From positions 1-64,000 of the IMG/VR virus record IMGVR_UViG_3300024054_000015: 64,000 nucleotides of DNA, one strand, 5' to 3'. The stretch's first letter is position 1; every line of letters starts with the position of its first letter. Below are positions 3,607 through 54,606 of this stretch, piece by piece. The translations under genes were made by a program, and so were the position numbers. Source of the stretch: a virus. The notes under the pieces were generated by a model, which was not told where the DNA came from, ran no database searches, and was given only the letters and a program-made list of their open reading frames with translations.

Positions 3607-4071
3607 ATGACTCACACTACAAGAGTAACCCCTCCGGGTACTCCGTTTGATGAAGGCTATCAGTCAATGATTGCCTTTGCCGCCGATCCCAATCTTTCGT
3701 TCTGGGAAACCGTTGTAGGGGCTCCCGGCATCGACGGTGGTGATCCTGTTCCAACAACCACGATGCACAACCGCTCGGTCAGGACCTTGGCTCCTCGTCG
3801 TCTGAAGAGCCACACCGCGTTTCAGGTTCAAGGAAAGTTTGGTGGTGCGACGATTGATCAGGTTTATGCCCTCATCAACGTCAATGGCTGGATCACTGTG
3901 CATTGGCCAGACGAAACCAACTACAGCTTTCCTGGATACCTCAAGAGCTTTCAGCCAGGGCAGTCTCAAGAGGGCAACCCGTTAGAGGGGGTTATTGAGA
4001 TTGTGCCTACTATGCAGATCAATGGTGTTGAGACTGAGTACGATTTGCAGGTGGCGGGCACTGGCACGTAG
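3607..4071 (+). CDS. Major tail tube protein
   Basis: 154 aa; ITVHWPD...FPGYLKSF pattern; precedes chaperone and tape measure genes. Confidence 0.7.
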   Translation: MTHTTRVTPPGTPFDEGYQSMIAFAADPNLSFWETVVGAPGIDGGDPVPTTTMHNRSVRTLAPRRLKSHTAFQVQGKFGGATIDQVYALINVNGWITVHWPDETNYSFPGYLKSFQPGQSQEGNPLEGVIEIVPTMQINGVETEYDLQVAGTGT

Positions 4072-4085
4072 TCGTTAGGGCTGTA

Positions 4086-4181
4086 AAGGGGCCTAGTAGC
4101 CCTTCAGCAACGCGCAAAGCCGCACAAGCACCAATACCTCAGGCGGGCTTGGCGCGTGCTGTAAGGGCTGCTAGGGGCCTT
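4086..4181. repeat. Dispersed 96-97 bp inverted-repeat element, copy 1
   Basis: AAGGGGCCTAG...CTAGGGGCCTT ends; related copies at 19864 and 53289. Confidence 0.75.
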
Positions 4182-4227
4182 AAAACACAGCCCCCCATAA
4201 GTGGTACACGTTCAAAGGAGCAGCAAG

Positions 4228-14045: not shown

Positions 14046-14048
14046 TCC

Positions 14049-18526: not shown

Positions 18527-19841
18527 CATTCCCCACAAGCCAGAGGCTTCCCTAGCTTATCCTTATCTGGCTGGGGGTCTACTAGACCTTGGTGTAAGTG
18601 TCAGTATCTATGACGCCTGTGTAGGGAACAGTAAAGATCCTGAGGACGTGTTCTACAACTCTGTGGACCTCCCTAGTGGGCTACGCAGATACGGGGTTTC
18701 AGACGACAGGATCTTAGAGGAGGTTAGCGACAGTGACCTAGTTGGCATCACTTCCATATTCACTGCTCAGGAAACGATGGCCCTGTACGTCGGCAGGCTC
18801 ATCAAGAAACATTTTCCAGACAAGGTCTTGGTTTGTGGCGGCACCAATGCCAGAAGCAGACCTAGGATGTTCATCAAGTCTGGGTTTGACGTGGTCTGTA
18901 TGTCTGAGGCCGACTACAGCATCCAAGCCATCGCCTACGCAGTAGAGAACCACAGGCCGACTAGAAGGTTCTACCGGCAACCACTGATCACCAACCTGGA
19001 CCAGCTTCCCATGCCAGCTTGGGAGCTACACCAGAACGATCGGTACTGGCAGTTAGGAAAGCCTCACGGTTCAGCCCAAGGTGAGGGCTTCAAGTACGCT
19101 CCCATCATGACCTCTAGAGGATGTGTGTTCAGGTGCAGCTATTGCCACATCTCAGGAGAGCAAGGCATCTGCAAGTTTCGTGTCAAGTCCTTGGACAGGG
19201 TTTCCTTAGAGTTGGAGAAGCTTCGCACCCTGGGTGTAGAGAACCTCTTCATTGAGGACGACACGCTATTCGGGAACAAGCCCAGGGGCCTTGACGTCTT
19301 GAGGCTAGTCCAGCAGTTCAGCTTTAAGGTCTGGGACATCAACGGCGTCAACATTGCCCACCTGTTCAAAGGCAGCGAGCCAGACCAAGAAGTCCTGGAC
19401 ACTCTTCAGGCTTGTGGCTTTGCAGCCCTGACCATTCCAGTAGAGTCTGGTAGCCAGAGGATCCTGGACAAGTACGCCTCCAGGAAGTGGCAGGTAGCCA
19501 GATACGACATATCGAAACTCATCAAGGGTCTGAACAGCAGAGGCATCAAGGCAGGCGTGAACTACATGCTGGGCTATCCAGACGAGACCCTAGAGGAGAT
19601 GCAGTCAACCATCGCTCTAGCTCAGAAGCTAAGAGACGCTGGGGCGAACAGTTCAAACTTCATGATCGTTATCCCACTGCCTGGAACTGCCATCTATGAC
19701 ATGGCTATTAGGGAGGGGTATCTGGATCTAGACTTTAACCCAGATACGTTCAACTGGAGGCAAGCCAGCATGAAGAATACAACCGTGCCAGCAAGTCAAA
19801 TAGAGGAGATGCAAGCCGAAGCCTACGCCAAGCTAAACTAG
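18483..19841 (+). CDS. Cobalamin-binding radical SAM protein
   Basis: N-terminal B12-binding domain (LVGITS, VCGG); TSRGCVFRCSYC; ESGS; GYPDET; PLPGT. Confidence 0.9.
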   Translation: MKVTLIYPPQQSRPDIPHKPEASLAYPYLAGGLLDLGVSVSIYDACVGNSKDPEDVFYNSVDLPSGLRRYGVSDDRILEEVSDSDLVGITSIFTAQETMALYVGRLIKKHFPDKVLVCGGTNARSRPRMFIKSGFDVVCMSEADYSIQAIAYAVENHRPTRRFYRQPLITNLDQLPMPAWELHQNDRYWQLGKPHGSAQGEGFKYAPIMTSRGCVFRCSYCHISGEQGICKFRVKSLDRVSLELEKLRTLGVENLFIEDDTLFGNKPRGLDVLRLVQQFSFKVWDINGVNIAHLFKGSEPDQEVLDTLQACGFAALTIPVESGSQRILDKYASRKWQVARYDISKLIKGLNSRGIKAGVNYMLGYPDETLEEMQSTIALAQKLRDAGANSSNFMIVIPLPGTAIYDMAIREGYLDLDFNPDTFNWRQASMKNTTVPASQIEEMQAEAYAKLN

Positions 19842-19863
19842 GCTGTTTGGCGTAATGCCCAAC

Positions 19864-19960
19864 AAGGCCCCTAGCTACCCTGTAGGCGAGCGCAAGCCGT
19901 AACAAGGTGCAGCTAGGCCACTAACTACCAGCGCTCGGCTACGGGCCTGCTAGGGGCTTT
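19864..19960. repeat. Dispersed 96-97 bp inverted-repeat element, copy 2
   Basis: AAGGCCCCTAG...CTAGGGGCTTT ends, 97 bp span. Confidence 0.75.
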
Positions 19961-19986
19961 AATTGGCATACTACCTTTGGGGGTAA

Positions 19987-20046
19987 GGTAGGCAGCGCTC
20001 TCGCTCGGGTCCTGCTCCGCCCGTAGCTTGAGAGCGCTGCCCTACC
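19987..20046. terminator. Long hairpin between convergent transcription arms
   Basis: GGCAGCGCTCTC (19991-20002) pairs with GAGAGCGCTGCC (20030-20041); no U tract. Confidence 0.55.
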
Positions 20047-21790: not shown

Positions 21791-22075
21791 TTATCTCCGG
21801 GAGATGTTAATCGCGTGATAGGTGTTGCCAGTGCGTTCATCCGTGACCTCCGTCATGGTCACGTGGCAGTAATCCCTGACCATGCCGTGGACGATGTTCT
21901 TCCGCACCGTACTCTGTACGGCTCTAGGAGCACAGCGTACTGCGAGGTTGACGATTCGTCCAATCTTGATGGCCAGATCCTTAGCGTCGATGCCTGGATT
22001 AGCCGCCGTCAGATCATTGATCAAAGCCACCACTTCCTTACGACCTTCTTCTGCAATCTCTAAGTAACGAGCCAT
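21791..22075 (-). CDS. Hypothetical protein
   Basis: AAGGAG RBS, 94 aa. Confidence 0.7.
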   Translation of the reverse strand: MARYLEIAEEGRKEVVALINDLTAANPGIDAKDLAIKIGRIVNLAVRCAPRAVQSTVRKNIVHGMVRDYCHVTMTEVTDERTGNTYHAINISRR

Positions 22076-22087
22076 GACTTGCTCCTT

Positions 22088-22300
22088 TCAGTTGGATCTA
22101 GCTGCATCTGCCTTCGGACCGTACACTGCCATTGGACCATCCACTGGATCTAGAACAGTTCCTCTTTCATCCTCGAACCAGACATGGGTTACGTCATAGA
22201 TCTCCTTTATGATCTTTCTGGTAAGCTCCCTATCGAACTCCGTCACAGACAGGGCTTCGCCACATTGCATCCCGATAGCATCCGCTGTGTAGTATCTCAT
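22088..22300 (-). CDS. Hypothetical protein
   Basis: HVWFEDE motif; starts just after helicase stop. Confidence 0.55.
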   Translation of the reverse strand: MRYYTADAIGMQCGEALSVTEFDRELTRKIIKEIYDVTHVWFEDERGTVLDPVDGPMAVYGPKADAARSN

Positions 22301-22301
22301 G

Positions 22302-28808: not shown

Positions 28809-29513
28809 TTACTCCTGGGCCTTGGCCTTCTTCAGTTCCTCACGACCCTTGGCCGTGATCTTGAACCGCTTCCCTCGCACCCCCTCCTCCGGCACGAGCT
28901 CTTCGAGCAGCCCGCCTTCCACGATCTGGGGCAGCTTCTTGCCCTTCTGGATTCCAGTGCTGTCGGCGATCTCACTGGCAGTCCGAATGTTGCCGTCATC
29001 CATGGCCTCCAGCACCTTGATCATGTTCGGCGTCAAGCCATTGAATGACTTCCGGCCTTCCCCCTTGGCCCTCGCCAGCTTCGGCAGCGGTCCAATCGAG
29101 GCCCGGTGCTTCTTGGCATCCTCCAGAATGCTCCACTCCTCGGTGTACTCCAGTTCCCGTTGGGCTTTCGCCACAGCGGCATCGGCCAGAGCGATCTCCT
29201 CCTCCTTCTTGGCCCTCTCAGCCAAGGCCAACTTCTTCTCGTTTTCCTTGGCCTCCTTCTTGGAGTTCTTCTCCTTTTTCTCCTTCTCCTGGGCTTGCTT
29301 CAGCTCCTTCTTGAGCTCCTCCATCTTCCGCTTGATGGCCTCCTTGGCCTCGTTCTGGGCCTTGGCCTTCTTGACGTTCTCCTCGTCCATCTTCTTCTCC
29401 TCGGGGGTCGTGGCGGGCTTCCCAACCGGCAGGGGCTTCGTGGTCCCCTCGGCGGCCTTCTTCTTCTGCTCCTCGGCCTTCTGCTGGTTCTGCGGGTTCT
29501 GATTCTTAGCCAT
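28809..29513 (-). CDS. Lys/Glu-rich coiled-coil protein with C-terminal winged helix
   Basis: LTPNMIKVL...TASEIADSTGI...GKRFKITAKGRE; paralog at 48951. Confidence 0.75.
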   Translation of the reverse strand: MAKNQNPQNQQKAEEQKKKAAEGTTKPLPVGKPATTPEEKKMDEENVKKAKAQNEAKEAIKRKMEELKKELKQAQEKEKKEKNSKKEAKENEKKLALAERAKKEEEIALADAAVAKAQRELEYTEEWSILEDAKKHRASIGPLPKLARAKGEGRKSFNGLTPNMIKVLEAMDDGNIRTASEIADSTGIQKGKKLPQIVEGGLLEELVPEEGVRGKRFKITAKGREELKKAKAQE

Positions 29514-29660: not shown

Positions 29661-29676
29661 AGCAAATGCCGTGCCA
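29661..29676 (-). promoter_or_regulatory. Sigma54 (RpoN) -24/-12 promoter
   Basis: Minus strand TGGCACGGCATTTGCT matches the consensus; intergenic. Confidence 0.75.
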
Positions 29677-30774: not shown

Positions 30775-30846
30775 CCTAGCACTCCCTAAGCAATCATCGA
30801 GGAATCTGCCTCATCAGTGCCGGTAGATCATCTCCGGCAGAGTCAG

Positions 30847-31041
30847 TCACTCCTGGCTTTCGGCTTTCCTCGCAAGCTCCATCAGGGCACTGGTAATCTG
30901 CTCCTCTGTTATTCTAGCCTTTCGGCTCTTTGTGTTGTCGGTCATCTGTACAAAACATCTCAGCCTTCTATTCGTTTTCGCTCTTATCATGTTCTCCGTA
31001 ACAAACACGGAATTCATTCCACCTAGTTCTCTAACGCTCAT
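30847..31041 (-). CDS. Hypothetical protein
   Basis: Coupled early ORF. Confidence 0.55.
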   Translation of the reverse strand: MSVRELGGMNSVFVTENMIRAKTNRRLRCFVQMTDNTKSRKARITEEQITSALMELARKAESQE

Positions 31042-31451
31042 AGCTTTACTCCCAACTTTTCCATTCTGGCCGTTACCTCGGCCATCTCTTCATCACTCAA
31101 GGTTACTCCAGCCTGCTCGCAGGCTTGCAGTGCTGCCAACAGGGCTTGCATTTCATCCAGTTGCCCTCGCAGCTTCTTCGGCCTGTTCTTCTCTGCAATA
31201 AGTTCATTCTGCTTCTCGTTACTCTTATGGTAGCACGCCTGGCATACCGTCGTAACGTTCCAAGTGTCATAACCATTCTGGTTAATCAACAGCCTCGTAG
31301 CTTCCACTTCCTCCGCCTCCTCCACTGTAAGGCAAGGCTTGCAGTGGTAGGGGCAGTTTCGGCATCGTCCTATTCGGTACACTTCAGGTGGCATACTACC
31401 TGCCCTCCCGTCCTTATTTCCAAATGGTAATATTCTAATCATTCGCTCCAC
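31038..31451 (-). CDS. Cys-containing hypothetical protein
   Basis: CRNC..HCKPC...CQAC. Confidence 0.6.
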   Translation of the reverse strand: MERMIRILPFGNKDGRAGSMPPEVYRIGRCRNCPYHCKPCLTVEEAEEVEATRLLINQNGYDTWNVTTVCQACYHKSNEKQNELIAEKNRPKKLRGQLDEMQALLAALQACEQAGVTLSDEEMAEVTARMEKLGVKL

Positions 31452-31518
31452 GCCTTACACTGCCTGCGCTGCCTGCTATACGCTGCGCCACTGTGTAGGC
31501 AAAAACCAATAGGCGCAA

Positions 31519-31550
31519 TAAAGCCCGTATGGCAAGCCATACGGGCTTTA
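31519..31550 (-). terminator. Intrinsic terminator of the island gene
   Basis: Perfect IR TAAAGCCCGTATGGC-AA-GCCATACGGGCTTTA just past the stop; T-rich tail on minus strand. Confidence 0.75.
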
Positions 31551-31566
31551 CGTGCGCTGCGCTGTG

Positions 31567-31920
31567 TTACTTGCCAGCGCTTACCAGCATGTAGTAGGCT
31601 GTGCCACCAACGGTAGTACCGTTGTTGCCAACGTAGCCGCCAGTGGTAACGCTTACCACTTGGCCAGCGCTGGCAAGCTTGCGCAATGTGCCGCGCAGTG
31701 GTGCCCATACAAGCTTGCCATTGCTGCGCTTGCGCGGCTTAAAGCCGCAAGCTTGCGCTACTTGGCGCAGTGTGTAGGGCTTACCTGCCTGCAAGCTTGC
31801 AAGTACTGCGCTGCCTTGCGGCGCTGCCTGCGCTGTGCTGGCAAGCGCTGCCTGCAATGCTGCAAGCGCTGCCTGTTGGGGGCTGGTGGTGGTGCTGGTG
31901 GTGGTGCTGGTGGTTGCCAT
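31567..31920 (-). CDS. Basic winged-helix-like DNA-binding protein with no Asp/Glu (117 aa)
   Basis: VLASLQAGKPYTLRQVAQACG...LRGTLRKLASAGQV..wing; TTAGGGG RBS; own promoter and terminator. Confidence 0.7.
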   Translation of the reverse strand: MATTSTTTSTTTSPQQAALAALQAALASTAQAAPQGSAVLASLQAGKPYTLRQVAQACGFKPRKRSNGKLVWAPLRGTLRKLASAGQVVSVTTGGYVGNNGTTVGGTAYYMLVSAGK

Positions 31921-31997
31921 GTGCGTTACCCCTAAGCTGGTGGTGCAGTACCGTTGCTGCCACATTGGCAGCAACCGGCGTAACAGTGGCAACAACC

Positions 31998-32013
31998 GCA
32001 AGCGCTGTGCCAA
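31998..32013 (-). promoter_or_regulatory. Sigma54 (RpoN) -24/-12 promoter
   Basis: Minus strand TTGGCACAGCGCTTGC about 80 nt upstream of the ATG at 31920. Confidence 0.7.
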
Positions 32014-32147
32014 TGGCGCGCAAAATGGCTACAAGTGGCAGCGCGCGCGCACATATATGTTGTGTGCGCGCGCCGCCCCTGCCGGTCATTCACCATACAG
32101 ACTCATAGAAAGTTTGGATAACATGGAAATACGACTATTGGAAATAT

Positions 32148-32186
32148 CTAGACCTCCATACAAGATCCGTTTGTATGGAGATCTAG
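32148..32186 (-). terminator. Hairpin terminator upstream of the island
   Basis: CTAGACCTCCATACAA pairs with TTGTATGGAGATCTAG right after the stop of ORF 32197. Confidence 0.6.
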
Positions 32187-32196
32187 GTTAGACTGC

Positions 32197-33447
32197 TCAT
32201 CCTTGTGACTTGTCCAAGCTTCCAATGTCAATACCCATCAGGTCACCAAACACTTCCCCAACCGTTGGACAAGCTGCCAACCTTTCCACTCCATCCTGGT
32301 CCTTGATTAGATCAAGGGTGACGTCCTCCTCAGCCAACTTCTTGTTTTCTGCGAATTTCCACCAGGATTGGACGATTAGGGCGACCCTTTCCTGGAGAAA
32401 AGAGCCTCCAGCAGAGTCCATCAGTTCTGATACAGCTTGTATGAGCAGCTTCATGGACTTGTCGCCAGAAGCGATGGCAGTCCAAAAGCTGCAAGCCTTA
32501 TCCCACATGTCCCAATTCAGCAAGTCCTCTGTGGGACAGTCGGCCTGGATGTAGCCTGTGCCCTCGGAGTTCTCCCGCTCGCTGCTACTGGACCCCATGA
32601 GGTACAGCAGTGCCGCAGCGTATCCAGGACTGGGATAATACTTGAGCTTGTCGTCATTTCCATTCTCCTCGTATATGTGCCGCACGCACTCCAGGAGCTT
32701 CGGATGGCGTTGGATGAAGTCCAAGCTCTCGGCATGTGTACGCCTGGGAGCAAAGGCGTTTTCGCTGGCTCCAGTGCGCTGCCAGAGCAGCCTCACAGCA
32801 TAGTCTGCCATACGGCTGAGCATTTTCAGCTTACGCTTGTCCTTGGACCTGGAGGCGTCCATGTCTCCAAACAGCCCGGAGGCGTAGATGGCATCCGCCA
32901 AGCTACGAGGCTTGCCAGTGTTGATGGTGTTAATGCTTTGGATGTCTTCACGTACTCCAATGTTGATGAAGCAGTGAATCTTCGGCTCTTCTCCCCAATG
33001 GTGGTACTTGTCCGGATTGTTGAGCCATTCCTGCTCAGCCAGCACTAAGCCGATTAGGCGATGCTTCCCGTCGATCACTAGGGCTGTGCGGCTGATAATG
33101 ATCGACTCACCGTTCGCCTCGCCGCCATCGCCGTTCCAGTGCCCACCGAGTATTTCGCCCATCCACTGCAAGGCAGTAGCCATATAGAACGGTCGCTGCT
33201 TCTCGACGTTAAAGCACTTGGTTGCGACTCCATTGCGGTCCTTCAGGAGAAATTCTGTGTAGGGCTTGTCGGCGTTGTCCGACTGCTTCCAGCCTAGGAA
33301 GGTTCGAGCCTGCTCGGCTGTTAGCCAACCTACCTTCCCCTTGAGCTCGGGGTAGATCACCTTACGCTCTTTGGGCGGCGCTGGCTCTTTGGACTGCTTC
33401 TTGCTCTTAGCCTTGGACTCTTCCAACTTTTCAACAAACTTCGGCAT
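32197..33447 (-). CDS. ParB/Srx-like N-terminal domain protein
   Basis: NGESIII...VIDGKHRL motif; AAGGAG RBS. Confidence 0.6.
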   Translation of the reverse strand: MPKFVEKLEESKAKSKKQSKEPAPPKERKVIYPELKGKVGWLTAEQARTFLGWKQSDNADKPYTEFLLKDRNGVATKCFNVEKQRPFYMATALQWMGEILGGHWNGDGGEANGESIIISRTALVIDGKHRLIGLVLAEQEWLNNPDKYHHWGEEPKIHCFINIGVREDIQSINTINTGKPRSLADAIYASGLFGDMDASRSKDKRKLKMLSRMADYAVRLLWQRTGASENAFAPRRTHAESLDFIQRHPKLLECVRHIYEENGNDDKLKYYPSPGYAAALLYLMGSSSSERENSEGTGYIQADCPTEDLLNWDMWDKACSFWTAIASGDKSMKLLIQAVSELMDSAGGSFLQERVALIVQSWWKFAENKKLAEEDVTLDLIKDQDGVERLAACPTVGEVFGDLMGIDIGSLDKSQG

Positions 33448-34065: not shown

Positions 34066-34638
34066 GTGGCACCTTACCCTTCTCTTCAGAAAGTTGCGGC
34101 GATGCGGGAAGAATTCGAAAGGATGATTGAGTTAGGCAAATGCGGGTACAAGCTCGCAGTCCTCAAGATTGTTAGACCAGACACCGATCCCGAGTACACC
34201 TACCAGTTAAGGCTGGATGGGCTGCGCTATGGGCAGTTCGGCATTGTGCAGGAGGATGAGATCTTCTACGTGGTCCACGTGGGCTCGGGCAGAGTTTGCG
34301 GTGAGTTCACAGTTATTGAGACTGCTGAGCGTGAGGTTTTTCTTCTCAGAAAATTGACCGACTGGAGGAAGGTTGGCTGGAGTGACAATGAGAAGTTTCT
34401 AAAGAGTCCTTTCCGCTTCATCTGTGCTGAAGCTGCGGAGTATTGTGTAGGTCTGGACAAGCCATTTGACAGACTCGCCAAGGCTGTGAAGGCCGCTCTC
34501 CCTAAGACTAAGGAAGAGATCGTGGAAGAGTTTGCATTTGAGCTACAGTCCACTCCATTCGGGGATGATGAGGAATTTGTACCTCCCAAGCGGTCTGAAG
34601 CCAAGAAAGACGATGGCTGGGGGCATACTATTACATAG
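34066..34638 (+). CDS. Hypothetical protein
   Basis: 190 aa; start may be the ATG at 34102. Confidence 0.65.
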   Translation: MAPYPSLQKVAAMREEFERMIELGKCGYKLAVLKIVRPDTDPEYTYQLRLDGLRYGQFGIVQEDEIFYVVHVGSGRVCGEFTVIETAEREVFLLRKLTDWRKVGWSDNEKFLKSPFRFICAEAAEYCVGLDKPFDRLAKAVKAALPKTKEEIVEEFAFELQSTPFGDDEEFVPPKRSEAKKDDGWGHTIT

Positions 34639-34686
34639 TGGCGGCGGCGGGCTTGCCTTATTACTGTTTGTGGTTACTATACTAAT

Positions 34687-34902
34687 ATGGCACATAAATA
34701 CAGCAATTATCGTGGTCGTCCAAGGAAGTATCCATGGAAGACCTGGTTCAAAAACTCTGTGACCCATTTGGTTCGTGGTAAGGACTACCAGTGTGAACCT
34801 TATAGTCTGGCTATACAGATACGCAGGATGTCTAACATCCTGGACATTCCAGTTACGGTCTCCGTACATGCAGAGCGGGTGACCATTACGAGGTTGAAAT
34901 GA
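34687..34902 (+). CDS. Small basic DNA-binding-like protein
   Basis: RGRPRKYPW (AT-hook-like). Confidence 0.6.
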   Translation: MAHKYSNYRGRPRKYPWKTWFKNSVTHLVRGKDYQCEPYSLAIQIRRMSNILDIPVTVSVHAERVTITRLK

Positions 34903-35363
34903 ACTACACAGAGAAAGACTTAAAAAGGTTCTGGAGCAGAGTCAACAAGTCTGGACCTGTTCATCCAGTTCATGGAACCTGTTGGAATTGGAAGACTTGG
35001 GATGGACGTAACTTCTATCACTATGGTGACTTCTTCTGCCAGGGAAGAATCTACAGGGCTCACAGGTTTTGCTGGGAGCTCCTTGTTGGACCAATTCCAG
35101 AAGGACTTATCGTCTGTCACAAGTGCGATAACGGAGGTTGTGTTAAGCCTAGTCATTTGTTCCTTGGCACTTACCAAGACAATATGACTGACGCCTCTGT
35201 TAAGGGTAGGATGAAAAGTCCTAAAGCTAAATTGAACAAGACTCAGGTTAGAAGAGTGAGGCAGGGTAAGGAATCCTTGGCCAAGCTGGCTAGGGAGTTT
35301 GGAATAACTGTTCCGGCGTTGATTCAAGTGAGAAAGAGAACTACTTACAAGTGGGTGAAATAA
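34899..35363 (+). CDS. HNH endonuclease
   Basis: CWNW, AHR, VCHKCDNGGCVKPSHLFLGT..DN; C-terminal HTH. Confidence 0.9.
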   Translation: MNYTEKDLKRFWSRVNKSGPVHPVHGTCWNWKTWDGRNFYHYGDFFCQGRIYRAHRFCWELLVGPIPEGLIVCHKCDNGGCVKPSHLFLGTYQDNMTDASVKGRMKSPKAKLNKTQVRRVRQGKESLAKLAREFGITVPALIQVRKRTTYKWVK

Positions 35364-35863
35364 TGCCTAAGCTCCCTATTCCTATAGTCATTAAACCTGA
35401 ACCTTGGTTCATTGGAGTAGATCCAGGTCAGTCTGGAGGAATCGCTGTAGTCTCTTTCAGTGTAAAGTGTGAGTACCTTTTCAAAATGCCTGAGACAGAG
35501 CAGGGCATTTGGGAGCTCTTTAGAGACCTATCAGTTGCATGTGAGTGTCGTGCTGTGATAGAGAAGGTTCACGCCATGCCTAAGCAGGGTGTATCATCCA
35601 CATTCAAGTTTGGCTGTGGATATGGTGGGCTTAGGATGGCTCTAACTGGAAACCTAATTCCATTTGAGGAGGTTTCTCCACAGACTTGGCAGAAGCAAAT
35701 GGGTATCCGTCCTCGAGCAAAGACGGAGAGCAAGAACGATCACAAAAACAAGCTCTTAGCAGCCGCCCAGCGACTATTTCCTGGACCGAGAATTACCAAG
35801 GCTACTGCTGATGCTCTATTGCTGGCGGAATACCTGCGTCGTGAGTACAGGGGAGTCATGTAA
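35363..35863 (+). CDS. RuvC-like Holliday junction resolvase
   Basis: IGVDPGQSGGIA, IEKV, PQTWQK, ADALLLA. Confidence 0.85.
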   Translation: MPKLPIPIVIKPEPWFIGVDPGQSGGIAVVSFSVKCEYLFKMPETEQGIWELFRDLSVACECRAVIEKVHAMPKQGVSSTFKFGCGYGGLRMALTGNLIPFEEVSPQTWQKQMGIRPRAKTESKNDHKNKLLAAAQRLFPGPRITKATADALLLAEYLRREYRGVM

Positions 35864-36432
35864 TGCCTAGAGTTGGCGATACTCCTTGGCAACGCTTTAA
35901 GCTCAAGTGGTCTGACTGTACGCAGTGTGAACTGTGTCAGGTACGGAAGAAGATCGTGCTGTGTCGTGGCAGTATCCCCTGTGATGTACTCCTGATTGGT
36001 GAAGCTCCTGGAGCCAGCGAAGACGTAATAGGTCAACCGTTCGTTGGACCTGCCGGTCACTTGTTGGATGAGCAGGTAGAGAATGTCATGAAGAACCTGG
36101 ACTTCCCAGAGATCAGCTTCTGCTTCACCAACCTAGTATGCTGTATCCCCAAGGTTCATGGCCGAAAGATCACTGAACCTATGGAGGAGCATGTGGACTC
36201 CTGCCAGCAGAGGAGGCTCGAGTTCATCCAGTTGTGCCAGCCTAAGATTATAGTCTCTGTTGGAGACTTGGCCTACAAGTACCTGGAGAGGGATGAGTTG
36301 GAAACCGTTAAGATCACTCATCCTGCGGCAATCCTCAGGGCTGAGGTTGTAAGGCAAGGACTTATGTATCAGAAAGTGGTGGTAACTCTAGAAAACGCCA
36401 TAAGGGATCTGTTAGATGGACAAGTTCATTGA
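35863..36432 (+). CDS. Uracil-DNA glycosylase family 4-like protein
   Basis: CxxC, IGEAPG..ED..GQPFVGPAG, TNLVCC, HPAA. Confidence 0.88.
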   Translation: MPRVGDTPWQRFKLKWSDCTQCELCQVRKKIVLCRGSIPCDVLLIGEAPGASEDVIGQPFVGPAGHLLDEQVENVMKNLDFPEISFCFTNLVCCIPKVHGRKITEPMEEHVDSCQQRRLEFIQLCQPKIIVSVGDLAYKYLERDELETVKITHPAAILRAEVVRQGLMYQKVVVTLENAIRDLLDGQVH

Positions 36433-36521
36433 GTTAATGATGGAACCCGAACCGGAGTTGGTTAGGGAACAGTTGGAAATGCGTCGTGAGAGGTTCTTAC
36501 CAGTTACACAGGAGCAGTTAG

Positions 36522-37640
36522 ATGCCCAAGCTCGCCAGCAAGCTGAAGAAGATTCAAGAAGAAAGGCCGAAAGGCCCAGTCTGGCAGGGTCCATGTGATC
36601 CTGGTCCCAATGGAGGAGTAACACAATCGTTACTCAACTCCTTTCTGGTGTGTCGGGAAAGGTTCAGAATCAAGTACATGGAGGGACTCCAGATACCGGA
36701 TGACTTCAACCACCGGCTTGAGTATGGAAACATGTGGCACGCCTGTGAGGAAGGCTTGGCTGCAAAAGACAAGGATCCCTTCGAAAGACTCACAAAGCTG
36801 GTCGTGGAACTCTGTGAGAAGTATCCACTTAAGAAGGCTGATATCATCCACTGGTACGAGATCTGTAGGATCCAGTTTCCAGTGTACCAAGCCTTCTGGG
36901 CTGAACACGAGGATACAGACAATCTCAGACCCGTTGCTCAAGAGCTTACGTTTAGGGTAGGCTTTCTACTGCCCAAAGGCAGGAAGGTCTGGCTGCGAGG
37001 CAAGTTCGACTCCATCGACAGAATTGGAACTAAGGTCTGGCTGCAAGAGAACAAGACCAAAGGAGACATTGACTCTGCTCTCATGCAGCGGCAGTTGTCG
37101 TTCGATCTGCAGACCATGCTATACCTCACAGCTATGCACAGTCAGGCGTGGACTGGTGAGGATGGAGCGCACTATGCTCCATCAGAGGTTGCCGGCGTCC
37201 GCTACAACGTGATCCGTAGACCTCTCAGCGGTGGTAAGGGTAGTATCCGCCAAAAGAAGAACCAAACTTCTGAGGAGTTCTACCAGGAACTTGGTGAGTT
37301 GATCAAGAGTGCTACTGGCCCAGAGTGGGGAGTATTACCAAGAGAGCATTTCTTCTTCATGCGGTGGAAGGTGGCTGTAACCAATGCGGATATAGTCGCC
37401 TATGTGCAGCACTTCCTGATCCCAGTCCTGGAGATGTTGTGTGACTGGTATGAGGAGCAGGTGGAGTTAAAGGAAATGAACCTTCGGCCCTTCGATGGTC
37501 ATCACCACTTTAGGACACCTTATGGAATCTACTCTCCACTGTATGATGGGAAGCCCACAGACGTGGATGAGTTTCTTTCTTCAGGGAGTACCGTAGGTCT
37601 TGTGAGAACCGAAAAGTTGTTTAAGGAGTTAGCAGAATGA
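36522..37640 (+). CDS. PD-(D/E)XK exonuclease (Cas4/RecB-like)
   Basis: GNMWH, LRGKFD, ENKT, QTMLY. Confidence 0.75.
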   Translation: MPKLASKLKKIQEERPKGPVWQGPCDPGPNGGVTQSLLNSFLVCRERFRIKYMEGLQIPDDFNHRLEYGNMWHACEEGLAAKDKDPFERLTKLVVELCEKYPLKKADIIHWYEICRIQFPVYQAFWAEHEDTDNLRPVAQELTFRVGFLLPKGRKVWLRGKFDSIDRIGTKVWLQENKTKGDIDSALMQRQLSFDLQTMLYLTAMHSQAWTGEDGAHYAPSEVAGVRYNVIRRPLSGGKGSIRQKKNQTSEEFYQELGELIKSATGPEWGVLPREHFFFMRWKVAVTNADIVAYVQHFLIPVLEMLCDWYEEQVELKEMNLRPFDGHHHFRTPYGIYSPLYDGKPTDVDEFLSSGSTVGLVRTEKLFKELAE

Positions 37641-42942: not shown

Positions 42943-43029
42943 GGGCCTGATAGTGTAATCGGTAGCACATTGCTGTTCAAGATCGGTGGCTTGGCAGTGA
43001 AGGTGTGGGTTCGAATCCCACTAAGGTCC
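42943..43029 (+). tRNA. tRNA-like element (His-like) with an elongated anticodon arm
   Basis: D arm GTGT-AATCGGTA-GCAC; T arm GTGGG-TTCGAAT-CCCAC; G-1:C73 pair; no canonical 7-nt anticodon loop. Confidence 0.55.
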
Positions 43030-45970: not shown

Positions 45971-46356
45971 AGGCTAAGTGTGTAGCTATCTTAGATACTA
46001 TGTGGGGAGGATCTGGCAAGGCTCCAGGTATGTTTAGGATAAACCCTAAGAACCACACAGGCCGGAGGCTGTACTGGTTCCTCGGCCACAAGGATCTATG
46101 GGTTACGAATGCCTGCACAGAGTACGTCGCCAATGCCAAGCTGCACGGGAGGCCAGACCCTAAGAGGTTGGCAACTAACCTCCAGAGAGTCACCTGTGAC
46201 CTATTGCTGGTCTGTGGTTCGGTGGCTGCTAAAGCCTTTAGGAAGTGTGGCTACAAACCGAAGTGTAGGGTCATATACATTCCGCATCCAGCTTGGCGTG
46301 GTTGGACAATGGAGCACTTGGAAGAAGTGAGAAGGAGAATACAAGATGAAGATTGA
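45967..46356 (+). CDS. Divergent UDG-superfamily-like protein
   Basis: WVTNAC, LLVCGSVA, IPHPAWR. Confidence 0.55.
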   Translation: MKAKCVAILDTMWGGSGKAPGMFRINPKNHTGRRLYWFLGHKDLWVTNACTEYVANAKLHGRPDPKRLATNLQRVTCDLLLVCGSVAAKAFRKCGYKPKCRVIYIPHPAWRGWTMEHLEEVRRRIQDED

Positions 46357-47224
46357 AGATGTTAGGAAGCTAAGCCCAGAAGGGAGGTTTCTGTATTGGG
46401 TTGGGGAAAGATGGAATATCCTTAGCAAGAGAAGGAGTGGCTATGTAAGGCCCTGGACGAATGACAAGATCTTACAGTCCTACTACTTTACCAATGTGAA
46501 GCGTAAGGATGACAAGGTCACCATCTGGGTTACTGAGAACATTATTGGACCAATGCAATGGGATCCACTGGTCATCTTTGCAGTCCTAGCCTTTCGGTGG
46601 TTCAACCAACCCCAACCTTCTGGAGAGTATCTAGTAAGTCATGATCTTCTAAAGCTGTGGAACTGCGAGTTGGCAGTGAAGGGACTTACAGGGTTCAAGA
46701 ACGCGGGCTTGAAAGTGTTCACTGGAGCCTTTAACATTTCCAATGGAGGTAGTAGCAAGCCTAAAGTCAACCGCGTCTGCGAGGACTACATCCAGCCAGT
46801 ATGGGAGTGTCGAGAGAACTTACTGAACCGTATATTAGAGCCCAAGGAGCGTACCCTCGCAAGAGCCTTTGAGGTAATCTCCGAGTATCCAGGTATGGGT
46901 GGCAGTGGCTTCATGGCTGCTCAGGTTGTCTGTGATCTAGCCTACACACACTTTCTAGAGGATGCTAAGGACTTTGAAACATGGTGTTCCTGGGGTCCGG
47001 GAAGTAGACGTGGTATGAATAGAGTGTGTGGCTTTGATGAAAACTTTCCAATGCCAGCAGGGGATTGGAATGTTAGACTTCAACGCTTGCGTGGGGTCAT
47101 CAGTAGGAAGCTTGGCCTAAACCTCCATGCCCGCGATGTTCAGAACTGTCTATGTGAGTTCTCGAAATACGAAAGGGCTTTGTGGAATCAAGGTCACTTA
47201 AAGAGGAGGTACAAGGGTGCCTAG
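46346..47224 (+). CDS. 5-hmdU DNA kinase-like protein (aGPT-Pplase1 family)
   Basis: PWTNDKILQSYYFTNVKRKDD, FRWFN, GPGSRRG, QNCLCEFSKY. Confidence 0.85.
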   Translation: MKIEDVRKLSPEGRFLYWVGERWNILSKRRSGYVRPWTNDKILQSYYFTNVKRKDDKVTIWVTENIIGPMQWDPLVIFAVLAFRWFNQPQPSGEYLVSHDLLKLWNCELAVKGLTGFKNAGLKVFTGAFNISNGGSSKPKVNRVCEDYIQPVWECRENLLNRILEPKERTLARAFEVISEYPGMGGSGFMAAQVVCDLAYTHFLEDAKDFETWCSWGPGSRRGMNRVCGFDENFPMPAGDWNVRLQRLRGVISRKLGLNLHARDVQNCLCEFSKYERALWNQGHLKRRYKGA

Positions 47225-48134
47225 AATACAGGAGCAGTTGATTGTCTATGTCCCCACTAGGGGAAGAGCTCGCAAGCAGACAACCCTCAAGCAGTTTGAC
47301 CTCTATAAAAGGCCAGACGTGTTTGTAGTGGTTCCAGAGTGTGAACGCAGGTTGTGGACTAGGGATGTGCTGGTAGTTCCAGACGACTACAAGTTTTCTG
47401 ACATTCGGCAGTTCATCCTTAACTGTCCTGGGAAGTACCATCTGGTGTTGGATGACGACCTAAGACCCGCGGTCAGAAGGATCGACGATCCAACTAAGTT
47501 CACCAACCTAGAGGTTATGGACAGGGCTTCTAGGGCAGACCATATTGACCAACTGTTTGATACGATACTGTCGTTACTCCAAGAGGGATGGGTGCATGGA
47601 GGCATTGCGGCTCGGCAAGGGGCCAACAACGACACCAATCAGTATCAGTTCTGTAGTCGGGTGGTAAGAGCCCACTTCTACAACGCAGAGATTGTGAAGA
47701 GTCTAGGACACGACTTTCGGCAGTTCGTTATTAAGCAGGACTATGACTTCATCCTGTCCATGCTGTGTAAGGGGATCCCTAACATAGTGATAAACGAATA
47801 TGTCCAGGATCAGGTTGGCAGTAACACTTCAGGAGGTTGCTCCAGGTATAGGACAAGCTCGGTGCTAGAGGAAGGAGCTAATCTACTACACCAGAAGTAT
47901 CCAGACTTCGTAAAGGTGGTGCATAAGCACCCCAAGACTTCCTGGGGAGGAAAGCCTAGAGTGGATGTAGTGATCCAGTGGAAGAAAGCCTATAAGGAGG
48001 GGTTAGAGTATGCCCGTCATTTACAGAGAAAGAATCCGGCCTCCATGGACAATAAAGATAGAGCAATCGCGCGGTTGCAACCTCTCATGCAAGTTCTGTC
48101 CAATAAACTACTTGAAGGAAATCAACCAAAGTAG
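47217..48134 (+). CDS. TAGT/GREB1/JGT-like DNA glycosyltransferase
   Basis: VPTRGR, RQFIL, VLDDD, QDYDF, GGCSRYRT, QWKKAY. Confidence 0.75.
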   Translation: MPRIQEQLIVYVPTRGRARKQTTLKQFDLYKRPDVFVVVPECERRLWTRDVLVVPDDYKFSDIRQFILNCPGKYHLVLDDDLRPAVRRIDDPTKFTNLEVMDRASRADHIDQLFDTILSLLQEGWVHGGIAARQGANNDTNQYQFCSRVVRAHFYNAEIVKSLGHDFRQFVIKQDYDFILSMLCKGIPNIVINEYVQDQVGSNTSGGCSRYRTSSVLEEGANLLHQKYPDFVKVVHKHPKTSWGGKPRVDVVIQWKKAYKEGLEYARHLQRKNPASMDNKDRAIARLQPLMQVLSNKLLEGNQPK

Positions 48135-48906
48135 GAAGTTCCTAAGCCCCTCAATGTGTAGGATTATTACTCGGCAGGCAGTGGAGCTAAAGCCCAACCT
48201 GAGAGTGGAACTGACCCTTAGAGGGGAGCCTACTCTAAACCCGCACATTCTGGAGAACCTCTCCATTATTAGAGAGGAGGCGCCTGAGTTCCAGATAAGT
48301 CTGTTCACCAATGGGGTGAAGACCTTTGGTGATCCGTCCCTGATCGTAGCGTTGCTGGATGCAGGTGTGAACATCCTGTGCATCGATTGCTACAACAATA
48401 CCTACCAGAGATTTCTCGAAGCTGCCAAGAGAACCAAGGAGCAGGTCGTGGACTTCAGGGAGTTCTCTGCCTACAAGAGATACAGGAACGGTCATAGGCT
48501 ACGGGTTATCAACCTAGTACCCGACATCCAGGAGGGATCTGTAGACGTCAGGAAGATCCACAATAACGCTGGAAACGTGGACCCCGAGTACCTGTCTAAA
48601 CTTGAGGGCTACGTTAAGCAAGCCCTACCATTGGCCCGAGGATGCTCTAGACCATTCACTGAGGTTGTGGTCTACTACAATGGGGATGTTCCAATCTGCT
48701 GTAGTGATTGGAAGGCTGAGTATGTCCTAGGTAATGTTATGGACCAAGACCTATCGGACATCTGGTATGGTAAGAGACACTACGAAGCCTTGGTGAAGCT
48801 TCACATGTCTAGGGCAGATAGAAGTCTACCTCCATGTGCCAAGTGTGACTACCACGGTGGGTATCGTCTTGGACTTCTGCAAGATCCAATAAAAAACCCC
48901 CGCTGA
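48010..48906 (+). CDS. Radical SAM/SPASM protein
   Basis: CNLSCKFC, GEPTL, CSRPF..GDVPICC.DW..LGN..CAKC. Confidence 0.9.
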   Translation: MPVIYRERIRPPWTIKIEQSRGCNLSCKFCPINYLKEINQSRKFLSPSMCRIITRQAVELKPNLRVELTLRGEPTLNPHILENLSIIREEAPEFQISLFTNGVKTFGDPSLIVALLDAGVNILCIDCYNNTYQRFLEAAKRTKEQVVDFREFSAYKRYRNGHRLRVINLVPDIQEGSVDVRKIHNNAGNVDPEYLSKLEGYVKQALPLARGCSRPFTEVVVYYNGDVPICCSDWKAEYVLGNVMDQDLSDIWYGKRHYEALVKLHMSRADRSLPPCAKCDYHGGYRLGLLQDPIKNPR

Positions 48907-48929
48907 ACACCGTTCAACGAGGGTTGTTT
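48892..48929. terminator. Bidirectional terminator candidate
   Basis: A-run, imperfect hairpin and T-rich tail between convergent genes. Confidence 0.5.
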
Positions 48930-48950
48930 GTGTTGATCGTAGTTGCCGTG

Positions 48951-49271
48951 TTAGCTCTTTGATTCCTTCAGGGCTTTTTCCAGGGCTTTTCGACCAACGG
49001 GTGTAATCTTGAATCTCTTGCCACGCTTGCCTTCCTCGGCCACCAGTTCCTGTAGATATCCTTTCTCCACAAGCTCGGGCAGTCGGCGTCCCTTGTCGAT
49101 CCCGGTCGAGGAACTGATCTCAGCGGCAGTCAACACGCTACCACTCTTCAGCGAGTCCAACACCTTCATCATGTTGGGAGTAAGATCCTTTGGCTCCCGA
49201 GGGGTTTGCTCCTTCTTCTCCTCCTTGGCGACCTTTCCCTTCTTCACTGGAAGTTCTGCTGTCTTGGGCAT
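48951..49271 (-). CDS. Winged-helix protein (paralog of the C-terminus of ORF 28809)
   Basis: LTPNMMKVL...TAAEISSSTGI...GKRFKITPVGRK; AAGGAG RBS. Confidence 0.75.
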   Translation of the reverse strand: MPKTAELPVKKGKVAKEEKKEQTPREPKDLTPNMMKVLDSLKSGSVLTAAEISSSTGIDKGRRLPELVEKGYLQELVAEEGKRGKRFKITPVGRKALEKALKESKS

Positions 49272-49317
49272 CAAATGCTCCTTTAGAAATGTAACCAACA
49301 AAACACCACTACCTTGC

Positions 49318-49345
49318 ATTGTAGGGTATAATGAAGTATTGGCAA
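49318..49345 (-). promoter_or_regulatory. Sigma70-type promoter
   Basis: TTGCCA-16-TACAAT on minus strand; overlapping plus-strand TATAAT at 49327. Confidence 0.55.
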
Positions 49346-49411
49346 GTCCTAGCTGAAAAATTTGTTCAAATAGTTGCAACTCGTGTTCCCACTCTCACTT
49401 AGGAGCAGACA

Positions 49412-50458
49412 ATGCACCTGTCTTACATGAATGTGAACGCCGCTTTCAACGACTTGGTGTGCAAGTTCCACTACAGTGAAATCCCCATAACTGTAGCCCC
49501 TAGTAGGAATGGGGACGTGATCATGGCGACCCAGCCCATGACCATCACCTACCTGAACCCCAAGCAAAGAGTCTTGTTTAACGAGGCTCGGGATTGCAAC
49601 CCATTCTTTCATCTGTTTGAGTCCTTGTGGATACTGGCTGGCAGGGATGACGTCGCTCCTCTGAAGTATTTTGTGTCTACGATTAATGAGTTCTCTGACA
49701 CAGGTTTCACGTTCAATGGTGCCTATGGTCAGAGATTGAGGTACTTCCATAGGATTGATCAGATTAAAGAGGCCATTGCCCAACTGAAGCACAACCCAAA
49801 CTCTAGAAGGGTAGTGCTACAGATGTGGACTCTCTCAGACATGATGAAAGCTGACAACAGACATGGAACCATGTCCAAGGACGTTCCATGCAACACACAT
49901 GCCTACGTCTCTATCAACCCACTTGGCCTAGAACTAACTGTCTGTAACCGAAGCAACGACATGATCTGGGGAATGCTGGGAGCCAATGTCGTACACTTCT
50001 CTTTCCTTCAGGAATACTTGGCGGCTTGTATAGGAGTTCCGGTCAACGTCTACAATCAGTTCACTAACAACCTACACGTTTACCGAAGCAACTGGAAGCC
50101 AGATGAATGGTTGAGTGACCGGACCGAGGATCTGTATAGTATGCCACGCGTCTTGAGAGCAGTGCCCTTAGTAAAAGACGTAGAGAGGTTCAACTACGAG
50201 TGTGCAGAGTTCATAGACCTAAAGGAGGATGGAGTCTATCAGGAACCATTTCTTAACGACGTAGCTGTCTGGGCTTGCTTGGGGTACAGACACCATAAGA
50301 ACCGGGAGTACCCTCGAGCTCTGGAAGCTGTGTCCAGGATAGAGTCTGATGATTGGAGAGTTGCTTGTCGTAGGTGGTTGGAACGAAGGTCAGTAGCTTG
50401 GAGGAAGAAGAATGGAGATGTCGAAAGAGCCGAGAGTTGTGATAACGCTGAGGCTTAG
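49412..50458 (+). CDS. Thymidylate synthase homolog, probably dUMP hydroxymethylase
   Basis: GAYGQR, SRRVV, DVPCN, RSNDMIWG..GAN (Asn indicates uracil specificity), NLHVY. Confidence 0.85.
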   Translation: MHLSYMNVNAAFNDLVCKFHYSEIPITVAPSRNGDVIMATQPMTITYLNPKQRVLFNEARDCNPFFHLFESLWILAGRDDVAPLKYFVSTINEFSDTGFTFNGAYGQRLRYFHRIDQIKEAIAQLKHNPNSRRVVLQMWTLSDMMKADNRHGTMSKDVPCNTHAYVSINPLGLELTVCNRSNDMIWGMLGANVVHFSFLQEYLAACIGVPVNVYNQFTNNLHVYRSNWKPDEWLSDRTEDLYSMPRVLRAVPLVKDVERFNYECAEFIDLKEDGVYQEPFLNDVAVWACLGYRHHKNREYPRALEAVSRIESDDWRVACRRWLERRSVAWRKKNGDVERAESCDNAEA

Positions 50459-53229: not shown

Positions 53230-54606
53230 ATGCCGAGATTGCCAGCACTTGAAGAGCCCTTACAGCCTGCCACCCAAACAAGCCCAGCAAGGCCCCTACA
53301 AGCCCGTTTAACGCATTTGCGGGCTTTATTGGGGTTGGTGCAGCCTGTACCGCGCGCGTGGCTTGTAGGGGCTGCTAGGGGCCTTAAAAGCCATGCCACT
53401 AGTTCGGGGGGTGAAGAAACTACCATTAGACTTAAATCCTGCGAGTCGTATCAAGATCTCGTGAAGGCTTGGCGTAAGGCCCTCAAGTGGTCTCCAGGTC
53501 TTGATAACACGTTAGCAGTGATGTTAGCCTCGAGCTTCTCTACACAGTTCGTTGGAGAGCAGTTGTGGCTTAAAGTCATCGGGCCTCCTAGTTGTGGAAA
53601 GACAACCCTAATGGAAGGGTTAGCCACTGCTAGGAAGTGGTATTTGAGTAAAGATACCATACGAGGCTTTCATAGTGGTTGGAAGCGTGAGGACAATGCA
53701 GACGTATCGTTAGCCGATATGGTCAAGGGAATGACATTAGGGACTAAGGATGGCGATACACTCCTCAAGGCTCCCAACCTCAAACAGATACTAGCCGAGG
53801 CTCGAGCTCTCTACGATCGTGTATCCAGAACCAACTACCGCAACGATACCAATCGTGAGTACCAAGGTCATCGCATGACTTGGCACCTAGCAGGCACTAA
53901 CGCTCTTAGGGAGATCGACGACTCAGAGCTTGGTGTAAGGTTTCTGGACGTAGTGGTAATGGATAAGATTGATGACGAGTTCGAGTACGAGGTCTGCTGG
54001 AGGGCTGTCAACCAAGAGATGATCAACATGCGTCATCTCTCTGACGGAAAACCCGAAACGCAGTATCCTGAGGATTTGGCTAATGCAATGGCCCTTTCTG
54101 GAGGATATCTCGACTTCCTCAGGACTAATGCTGTGGAGCTAGCTCGTAGTCTAGAGTTGTCTGATGAAAGCGTCGTTAATCGCTGTATTCAGCTAGGGAT
54201 CTTCACAGCCTTTATGCGTGCTAGATCTGGTGCTAACTCCGAGGAAGCTACTCGTGAGTTTGGCCCTAGACTAACGACACAGTTAGGGCGATTGGCTACA
54301 GGATTAGCCTGTGTCTTCAACAAGCCTAGAGTTGATGATGAGGTCATGCACAAGACTTGGCAAGTCGCTATGCACACATCCAGAGGGCCTACGTTAGAGC
54401 TCGTGAAGGTTCTACACAAGATCCCTCAAGGGATAGAAGTGCGTGGTTTAGCAGCCCTAATGCGTGCTAATGATGACAAGCTGCGCGCGCAGTTAAGATT
54501 CTTGCGAGCTATTGGTGTAGTGGAAACTGATGTGAACTTTAAGCGTTGGCGTATAACTCCCAAGCTATCCAAGCTCTATGAGGCTGTCAATGCCCAGAGA
54601 TCCTAA
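53230..54606 (+). CDS. Replicative helicase-like AAA+ ATPase
   Basis: GPPSCGKTT; follows primase; C-terminal wHTH-like region. Confidence 0.7.
   Translation: MPRLPALEEPLQPATQTSPARPLQARLTHLRALLGLVQPVPRAWLVGAARGLKSHATSSGGEETTIRLKSCESYQDLVKAWRKALKWSPGLDNTLAVMLASSFSTQFVGEQLWLKVIGPPSCGKTTLMEGLATARKWYLSKDTIRGFHSGWKREDNADVSLADMVKGMTLGTKDGDTLLKAPNLKQILAEARALYDRVSRTNYRNDTNREYQGHRMTWHLAGTNALREIDDSELGVRFLDVVVMDKIDDEFEYEVCWRAVNQEMINMRHLSDGKPETQYPEDLANAMALSGGYLDFLRTNAVELARSLELSDESVVNRCIQLGIFTAFMRARSGANSEEATREFGPRLTTQLGRLATGLACVFNKPRVDDEVMHKTWQVAMHTSRGPTLELVKVLHKIPQGIEVRGLAALMRANDDKLRAQLRFLRAIGVVETDVNFKRWRITPKLSKLYEAVNAQRS
53289..53385. repeat. Dispersed 96-97 bp inverted-repeat element, copy 3
   Basis: AAGGCCCCTAC...CTAGGGGCCTT, 97 bp; lies inside a 150-nt GA/TC-free stretch. 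Confidence 0.75.

Follow-up and report, generated by a model that had tools for sequence, protein, structure and literature searches.

Organization of the locus

The DNA analysed in this study is a window of 64,000 nucleotides (nt), the first 64 kb of the 80,045-bp record of an uncultured lake phage (IMGVR_UViG_3300024054_000015), and our attention is given to an island of 639 nt within it from which the dinucleotides GA and TC are both missing, together with the small leftward operon of three genes at whose head the island stands. The features located at this site, with positions in the window, are as follows.

32148..32186: hairpin 3' of the upstream gene, separated from the island by 60 nt
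31448..32086, both strands: symmetric GA/TC-free island, GC content 61%, from dinucleotide counts
32034..32080, both strands: GC-rich palindrome at the island head, folding z -4.7
31998..32012, minus strand: sigma54-type -24/-12 match TGGCACAGCGCTTGC, an exact TGGCAC-N5-TTGC
31953..31975, minus strand: leader hairpin of 10 bp
31929..31935, minus strand: ribosome-binding site TTAGGGG, the GA-free counterpart of TTAGGAG
31567..31920, minus strand: gene for a basic, winged-helix-like protein of 117 amino acids (aa) without Asp or Glu, from its open reading frame (ORF) and homologues
31519..31550, both strands: perfect 15-bp hairpin 3' of the stop codon, terminator-like, z -5.0
30841..32099, minus strand: zone without message-strand (minus) TC, that is, without plus-strand GA, with one exception at 31011/31010
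31038..31442, minus strand: downstream gene, 134 aa, Cys-rich; message-strand TC 0 versus 15.9 expected, GA 44
30847..31041, minus strand: downstream gene, 64 aa; message-strand TC 1 versus 9.9 expected, GA 28
30800..30865, minus strand: candidate type II hammerhead ribozyme (RF02276), 39.4 bits against a threshold of 37

On the minus strand, the elements of the island follow one another in the order palindrome, sigma54-type match, leader hairpin, 117-aa gene and 15-bp hairpin. Sequences matching the sigma54-type promoter, hairpins, gene, terminator and upstream hairpin proposed by a first-pass annotation of this DNA are all in place, as is the altered ribosome-binding site, which reads TTAGGGG before the 117-aa gene and TTAGGAG before several other genes. 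The 60 nt between the upstream hairpin (32186-32148) and the island are AT-rich and normal in GA/TC content, and the downstream limit of the island is the GGAG preceding the next gene. The palindrome sits 30-70 bp upstream of the sigma54-type match and is a candidate activator site, or a candidate 5' stem-loop if transcription begins near 32090. Exact TGGCAC-N5-TTGC sequences occur twice in the 64 kb, at 32012-31998 and 29676-29662 of the minus strand, both upstream of leftward genes, where our own estimate at equal base frequencies is about 0.1; no enhancer-binding activator gene for sigma54 was seen among the scanned proteins, and a simple sigma70 scan gave no promoter at the island head. 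The second match (29662-29676, minus strand) fronts a gene at 28809-29513 (minus strand) for a Lys/Glu-rich protein with a C-terminal winged helix, the 268-aa winged-helix gene, whose body contains two long TA-free runs of 336 and 361 nt. The upstream neighbour of the island (32197-33447, minus strand) encodes a 416-aa protein with a DGKHR motif and a weak DGQHR-domain match, and it has matches of 31-40% identity in all 12 related whole genomes fetched, except the incomplete closest relative (G001).

Absence of GA and TC from the island

Between 31448 and 32086 the counts of GA and TC are both zero, exactly as the first-pass annotation had described. Across the whole record the two dinucleotides occur at a rate of 0.142 per position (14.2 per 100 nt), both are over-represented (observed/expected 1.13 for GA and 1.15 for TC), and TC holds 29.7% of all T. 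The scan of the full genome that had been suggested as a check makes the island an extreme outlier: the second-longest GA/TC-free run measures 150 nt, and the expected number of runs of 639 nt is about 1e-38. Nothing comparable was found for the other dinucleotide classes in the same free-run scan. GA and TC are the only dinucleotides missing from the island, where GC (2.8-fold), TG (1.8-fold) and CG (1.6-fold) compensate for them and the GC content reaches 61% versus 52% in the flanks. Exclusion of one duplex step (5'-TC-3'/5'-GA-3') suffices to remove both dinucleotides over the 639 bp. A footprint of TC-to-TT deamination was rejected, since it is GC and not TT or AA that is enriched, and so was a Z-DNA or other structural constraint, since the remaining purine-purine steps are still present. 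Neither is there a general depletion of intergenic DNA, in which GA and TC together amount to 13.1 versus 14.4 per 100 nt.

A protein without acidic residues

Metagenomic homologues of the 117-aa protein share 38-74% identity with a clear conservation pattern, and the gene is real. The homologues (113-161 residues) contain between none and three Asp/Glu each. The ORF itself spells Ser only as AGC (ten codons) and Arg only as CGC (five codons); when it was recoded synonymously with the codon usage of the genome in 20,000 trials, the mean was 28 GA/TC and the minimum 12, against the observed 0. Its depletion (z -7.2) exceeds that of the next-lowest gene (z -4.1). The purge also takes in silent sites and non-coding DNA; the constraint therefore acts on nucleotides, with the missing Asp and Glu as its consequence, and a shortage of these residues alone is insufficient as a protein-level cause. 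Family models of Pfam and PHROG did not match the protein. An AlphaFold2 model (predicted local distance difference test, pLDDT, 52) has the order helix-helix-helix-strand-helix-strand-strand, and the neighbours among the Atlas structures belong to MarR/IclR/HTH_24 clusters (template modelling score, TM, 0.45-0.5), from which the product may resemble, with low confidence, a winged helix of the MarR/IclR type. A comparison with the neighbouring 268-aa winged-helix protein gives a weak paralogy signal (E 0.06). The name Atl1-like base flippase, which had been given to one homologue, was discarded, as neither profiles nor solved structures support it.

Extension of the purge on one strand

Downstream of the island, the purge continues over two more genes, on the message strand only. 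With the protein sequence controlled, the depletion of message-strand TC has a z of -5.6 for the 134-aa gene and -3.5 for the 64-aa gene, while their GA counts are normal or high and template-strand TC is abundant. This message-strand purge was seen in no other gene. Variants of the one-strand stretch carry 18 and 11 substitutions, none of which creates a plus-strand GA. At the far end, the hammerhead candidate overlaps the end of the 64-aa gene, within the leftward gene cluster; its CUGAUGA, GAAA and CUC (NUH) site are present, and four of its pairs are non-canonical. The cleavage triplet CUC (U30841 C30840) is the first message-strand TC past the zone and lies 7 nt after the last stop codon. 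Since the one-strand zone stops at this triplet, the three-gene operon is the selected unit, and the purge is nested, with the head of the operon clean on both strands and the tail on one. This nested purge, with its one-strand extension across two further genes, is new here.

Genuine DNA and conservation of the ban

The phage is present in lake-water metagenome runs of 2018 and 2025, and contigs of both years cover the island; contigs bridge its left edge, and its right edge falls 14-15 nt inside two overlapping contigs. The first-pass annotation had allowed for an assembly artefact, which these independent contigs exclude: the island is genuine DNA. Contig depth, 47 in the island and 38-51 in the flanks, is neutral on this point. 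The sequences from 2025 show two substitutions, a third, minor one and an insertion of 4 nt, and the ban holds in every version. Short contigs of diverged relatives from the same runs break away inside the island, and the four alignable 30-nt segments of these diverged variants contain 41 differences without a single GA or TC created, where 33% of the possible island substitutions would create one. The GA/TC ban is conserved in the diverged variants. The CAAGCTTG palindromes, of which the island has four, are lost in the diverged variants and were rejected as operator or centromere sites.

Searches for the island elsewhere were negative within their respective scopes. Its DNA had no match by blastn and tblastn against deposited phages; contigs of viruses, metagenomes and genomes yielded no match to the protein, whether queried as a single sequence or as an alignment; only two matches, both attributable to chance, came from a degenerate DNA pattern; and the neighbour gene, the UvrD-type helicase and PolA, used as queries, did not retrieve close relatives.

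A modification-like gene cluster

The gene content of the window includes one cluster that bears on the purge.

46346..50458, plus strand: modification-like cluster with aGPT-Pplase1/HMUDK_hel, a TAGT-type glycosyltransferase, a radical SAM/SPASM protein and a divergent thymidylate synthase (TS) homologue

The cluster stands after the polymerase gene, and a MazG-like gene follows at 51705-52337. The protein of 46346-47224 matches PF18723 (E 1.4e-38) and gp55 of phage M6, the paralogue without which lysate reconstitution still worked. The protein of 49412-50458 shares 39% identity with M6 gp58 and matches PF00303 (E 1e-20), but its score falls far below all cut-offs for a true TS; its substrate may be dUMP or dCMP. 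The glycosyltransferase matches the TET-associated family PF20691, and a UDG-family gene is also carried by the phage. A P-loop 5-hydroxymethyldeoxyuridine (5-hmdU) DNA kinase was sought by tblastn with one query, M6 gp54 (best E 0.28), which could miss a distant kinase, and M6 gp51 as the query for a clade-2 transferase found nothing. Clade 2 of the aGPT-Pplase proteins comprises the amino acid:DNA transferases. As to the dUMP hydroxymethylase and 5-hmdU DNA kinase from which the first-pass annotation had argued, the TS homologue and a hypermodification-like cluster exist, whereas the P-loop kinase and the clade-2 transferase were not detectable, and the supposed kinase consists only of a helical aGPT-Pplase-type domain (PF18723). 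A six-frame PF01702 search of the whole record for TGT/DpdA gave no match, with 14 of the 14 control genomes matched; no cytosine methylase or TET-type dioxygenase was identified among the scanned proteins, nor was a Mom-like protein or a DNA adenine methylase identified. By its sequences, the cluster is of a non-standard, thymidine-hypermodification-like kind.

There are two HNH_3 homing-type endonuclease genes on the plus strand (34899-35363 and 51184-51729), one of them inserted in the modification cluster between the region of the TS homologue and MazG. Another region of the plus strand (9858-19841) encodes two radical SAM enzymes, one of them B12-binding, methyltransferase domains and glycosyltransferases; this is unusual in a phage, and the target may be DNA or a cell-surface glycan.

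Twelve more distant related genomes (helicase 38-49% identical) were fetched whole. Among the related genomes, modification-family matches comprise both aGPT and TS in nine, TS alone in one and neither in three. The closest relative found (TerL 75%) also carries TS and TAGT genes, and its contig stops inside the modification cluster, short of the expected island region.

Other elements free or poor in GA and TC

Further GA/TC-free runs in the window are intergenic hairpins and regulatory spacers.

53255..53404: GA/TC-free intergenic hairpin of the CCCCTA-83 nt-TAGGGG family, between primase and helicase (hairpin element 53281-53393)
19807..20004: GA/TC-poor hairpin of the same family, adjoining the CsrA gene (hairpin element 19856-19968)
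4043..4226: GA/TC-poor hairpin with the right-arm motif CTAGGGGCCTTAAAA, without the 83-nt CCCCTA-TAGGGG pair (hairpin element 4071-4200)
34613..34710: GA/TC-free intergenic stretch of 98 nt in the rightward early region
L004:11687-11799, L005:6558-6670, L006:4161-4273 and L006:14582-14694: hairpin copies of the closest relative

The two intergenic hairpins of about 100 nt have conserved ends, AAGGCCCCTAGC and GCTAGGGGCCTT, at a constant spacing of 83 nt and with variable interiors, and the closest relative has four purged hairpins of the same CCCCTA-TAGGGG family. The hairpin at 4.1 kb has only the right-arm motif in common with the family and is left out of the six-element hairpin alignment. 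The gene beside the hairpin at 19807..20004 encodes a CsrA-family RNA-binding regulator (20053-20226, minus strand; PF02599, E 9e-24). The target of CsrA is a GGA motif, which is impossible in GA-free RNA; avoidance of GGA sites for the phage CsrA accounts for too little of the purge and was rejected as its cause.

Interpretation of the purge

Something in the infected cell must read exactly the TC/GA step, and this is most likely a DNA mark that the phage makes itself. We assign a probability of roughly 0.4 to the reading in which the operon escapes the phage's own DNA mark in TC/GA context. The phage would mark its DNA at the duplex step 5'-TC-3'/5'-GA-3', and by gene content the likeliest mark would be hypermodification of the thymine in TpC, which makes up about 30% of all T. 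Selection would spare one small leftward operon, its first 639 bp on both strands and its next two genes on one, and the DNA of this operon would stay ordinary while the remaining genome is marked; it could then be bound, read or spared where marked DNA is not, possibly on the entry of fully marked virion DNA or during attack by a modification-dependent nuclease. We infer in this way the existence of the mark, the base that carries it and the reason for the escape. One cause, a DNA mark, would cover the gene content, the symmetric island and the hairpins alike; it would cover the one-strand tail only if the strand matters.

The first-pass annotation had proposed that the phage puts a bulky group on T in TC context and keeps this unit free of it, for the host RNA polymerase to read from incoming virion DNA. 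The nucleotide-level ban, its conservation, the whole expression unit and the modification-like cluster hold, while several points of the mechanism do not. TC/GA abounds in all genes outside the operon, those behind the main leftward promoter among them, so an inability of the polymerase to read modified DNA cannot be general, and the one-strand tail keeps template TC and drops message-strand TC, whereas a block to template reading by modified T predicts the reverse.

Several observations weigh against an escape from the phage's own mark. The two downstream genes lose TC from the message strand only, where a T-in-TpC mark would sit on the template, with no obvious benefit; all other genes are rich in TC/GA on both strands and yet need expression; the P-loop 5-hmdU kinase and the clade-2 transferase were not found with the M6 proteins; and the zone, which seems to begin close to a site where transcription may start and has its end at a ribozyme cut, suits an RNA unit. 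In addition, neither the genome of phage M6 nor any of the ten relatives with a TS match, nine of them also with aGPT, contains a dinucleotide-free outlier of this kind. Neither a GA/TC-free outlier nor the island protein was found among the related whole genomes fetched; the scan of relatives, a check already suggested with the original description of the island, shows phages with matches to the same modification families and no such island, and such islands as a general trait of T-hypermodifying phages were rejected.

An immunity at the RNA level is a serious alternative, somewhat less probable. An agent acting on UC in single-stranded RNA would spare the message of about 1.26 kb, and an agent acting on GA, of the CmdT kind, would spare its first cistron; this message, with its start at about 32095 and its end at the hammerhead cut (30840), would stay translatable when others are disabled, as might be needed for an antidote or takeover function. 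The significant message-strand-only purge of the two downstream genes speaks for it, as do the limits of the zone, which has its start within the 60 AT-rich nt that follow the upstream terminator and its end at the NUH triplet of the hammerhead candidate, although the score of the latter barely exceeds the threshold. A near-zero count suits an agent that is lethal at a single site, hairpin RNAs that avoid UC would drop paired GA automatically, and the GA-free AGGGG ribosome-binding site fits the targeting by CmdT of A in GA, Shine-Dalgarno sequences included (PMC11618068). However, this explanation requires either a pair of agents with targets that chance to be reverse complements or a hypothetical antisense transcript over the island only; a UC-specific RNA agent was not found in the literature; and, if the sigma54-type promoter (32012-31998) is the true start, about 100 purged nt precede the transcript.

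The agent could also be a purine mark or a purine-directed enzyme at 5'-GA-3', in which case a GA-free template would be needed for faithful copying and the regulatory head would be clean on both strands. Adducts at N6-adenine or guanine can interfere with pairing on a template, and the template (plus) strand is indeed GA-free over the whole operon and the non-template strand in the island only; we nevertheless consider this improbable, as there is no TGT/DpdA gene (with the controls matched), neither a Mom-like protein nor an adenine methylase was identified, such modification genes as there are belong to the thymidine type, and the cleanness of the island's coding body on both strands is unexplained. 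The latter difficulty applies equally to the first gene if a host enzyme attacks TC in single-stranded DNA, either a TC-specific deaminase or a DarT-like thymidine ADP-ribosyltransferase, and the most exposed strands avoid TC, namely promoter bubbles, extruded hairpins and, in a heavily used operon, the non-template strand. The purged strand of the two distal genes is the non-template one, hairpin-forming elements are purged on both strands and the phage has a UDG-family gene, but other presumably well-expressed genes are not purged, and such an enzyme is very improbable as the cause. Finally, a first-injected genome end, which the first-pass annotation had also considered, or a foreign or artefactual insert would agree with the difference in GC content between island and flanks and with the distant relatives, which keep the upstream neighbour gene without the island. 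Contigs of several runs pass through the island with no pile-up of contig ends, though, and it lies inside a gene cluster, between two coding genes and 31 kb into a linear record without end repeats; the purge starts and stops at expression signals and natural diverged variants exist. We regard an end or insert as the least plausible of these explanations.

Beyond the identity of the agent, some phages may keep an 'escape operon', of which this locus would be an example: a single expression unit that does without one dinucleotide, pays for this with entire amino acids and is thereby invisible to an agent reading that dinucleotide; such a generalization is possible, though doubtful. What is evaded would be either the DNA mark of the phage itself or a defence of the host on DNA or RNA, the 3' limit would here be a self-cleaving ribozyme, and the first product, an acid-free winged-helix protein, would let the remaining marked genome work or would disarm the defence. 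If this description is true, purged dinucleotides would be a sequence-only read-out of the specificity of a phage mark or a host defence; and, supposing that the purge mirrors a mark of the phage itself, the context of a hypermodification could be read from the genome alone, uncultured phages included. Few modification contexts are known so far, and the usual route to them is virion DNA and mass spectrometry. The purge singles out three genes needed where the remaining genome fails, among which anti-defence or takeover functions would be expected, and its strand-specific half offers an experimental handle on whether the agent reads DNA or RNA. It also shows the reach of recoding selection, by which a protein has been stripped of all acidic residues for a nucleic-acid constraint.

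Comparison with known systems

We found no description of a dinucleotide-purged operon in the literature. The context-dependent hypermodification of T that the first-pass annotation had assumed agrees with published marks in TG/TC dinucleotide contexts (PMC6449724, PMC12191111): in M6, ViI and phiW-14, the restriction sites that resist cleavage imply that T is modified in TG/TC (PMC6449724), the conversion of 5-hmdU has been termed sequence-specific (PMC5889632), Pbunaviruses carry a sugar-type mark on about one quarter of T, in TG (PMC12191111), and hosts possess nucleases against hypermodified DNA (PMC12191111). As in our phage, the genes for the TS homologue and aGPT-Pplase-type proteins stand by the DNA polymerase in M6/ViI/phiW-14 (PMC6449724, PMC5889632, PMC8989533) and in the Pbunaviruses F8/14-1 (PMC12191111). 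Systems derived from 5-hmdU mark 25-50% of T after replication in a two-letter context, and TC would here be 30% of T. Unlike the M6/ViI type, with its TG/TC contexts, the context would here be TC alone, and a TAGT-type glycosyltransferase and a radical SAM/SPASM protein replace the undetected P-loop kinase and clade-2 transferase; moreover, a mark-free operon is not described in these papers as far as they were consulted, and M6 itself has none.

Phages with a GpC C5-methylase, TET and glycosyltransferases (bioRxiv 10.1101/2023.12.21.572611; PMC8256090) likewise place a sugar mark after replication in one dinucleotide context, and the glycosyltransferase of our phage matches PF20691; the difference is that a cytosine methylase and a TET-type dioxygenase were not identified here and that the context is not GpC. 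CmdT, of the CmdTAC system, ADP-ribosylates adenine in GA of single-stranded mRNA, GA occurring in Shine-Dalgarno sequences (PMC11618068). It thus reads exactly GA and disables messages, and the island message and its ribosome-binding site are GA-free; it leaves the wider UC purge unexplained, however, the two distal genes are rich in GA, and no such system is known for the host here. A loss of GA from the message only, as expected of an escape from CmdT, is not what is seen, since the island message lacks UC too and the wider purge is one of UC. In the avoidance of restriction sites and short motifs by phage genomes, and in protected early regions such as the class I region of T7 or the first-step-transfer DNA of T5, selection likewise removes a short word from DNA needed at a vulnerable moment. 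Here, in contrast, the word is a bare dinucleotide, the avoidance is local (0.6-1.3 kb), absolute and partly strand-specific, two amino acids are lost, and the island is not at a known genome end.

Minor observations

Other dinucleotides are missing locally from related phages. In G004 (IMGVR_UViG_3300009149_000037), about 1.1 kb without CG lie at 35419-36577, between the aGPT and TS homologues, with CG-free runs of 415 and 688 nt (log10 expected -5.9). In another related phage, 125 nt without CA/TG (L024:1702-1826) follow directly after the helicase gene, and G007 has 282 nt without TG on one strand (22036-22317). Our window also contains a tRNA-like gene at 42943-43030 (plus strand; Rfam tRNA, 41.8 bits), to which ARAGORN gives a four-base anticodon (caag) and no amino acid.

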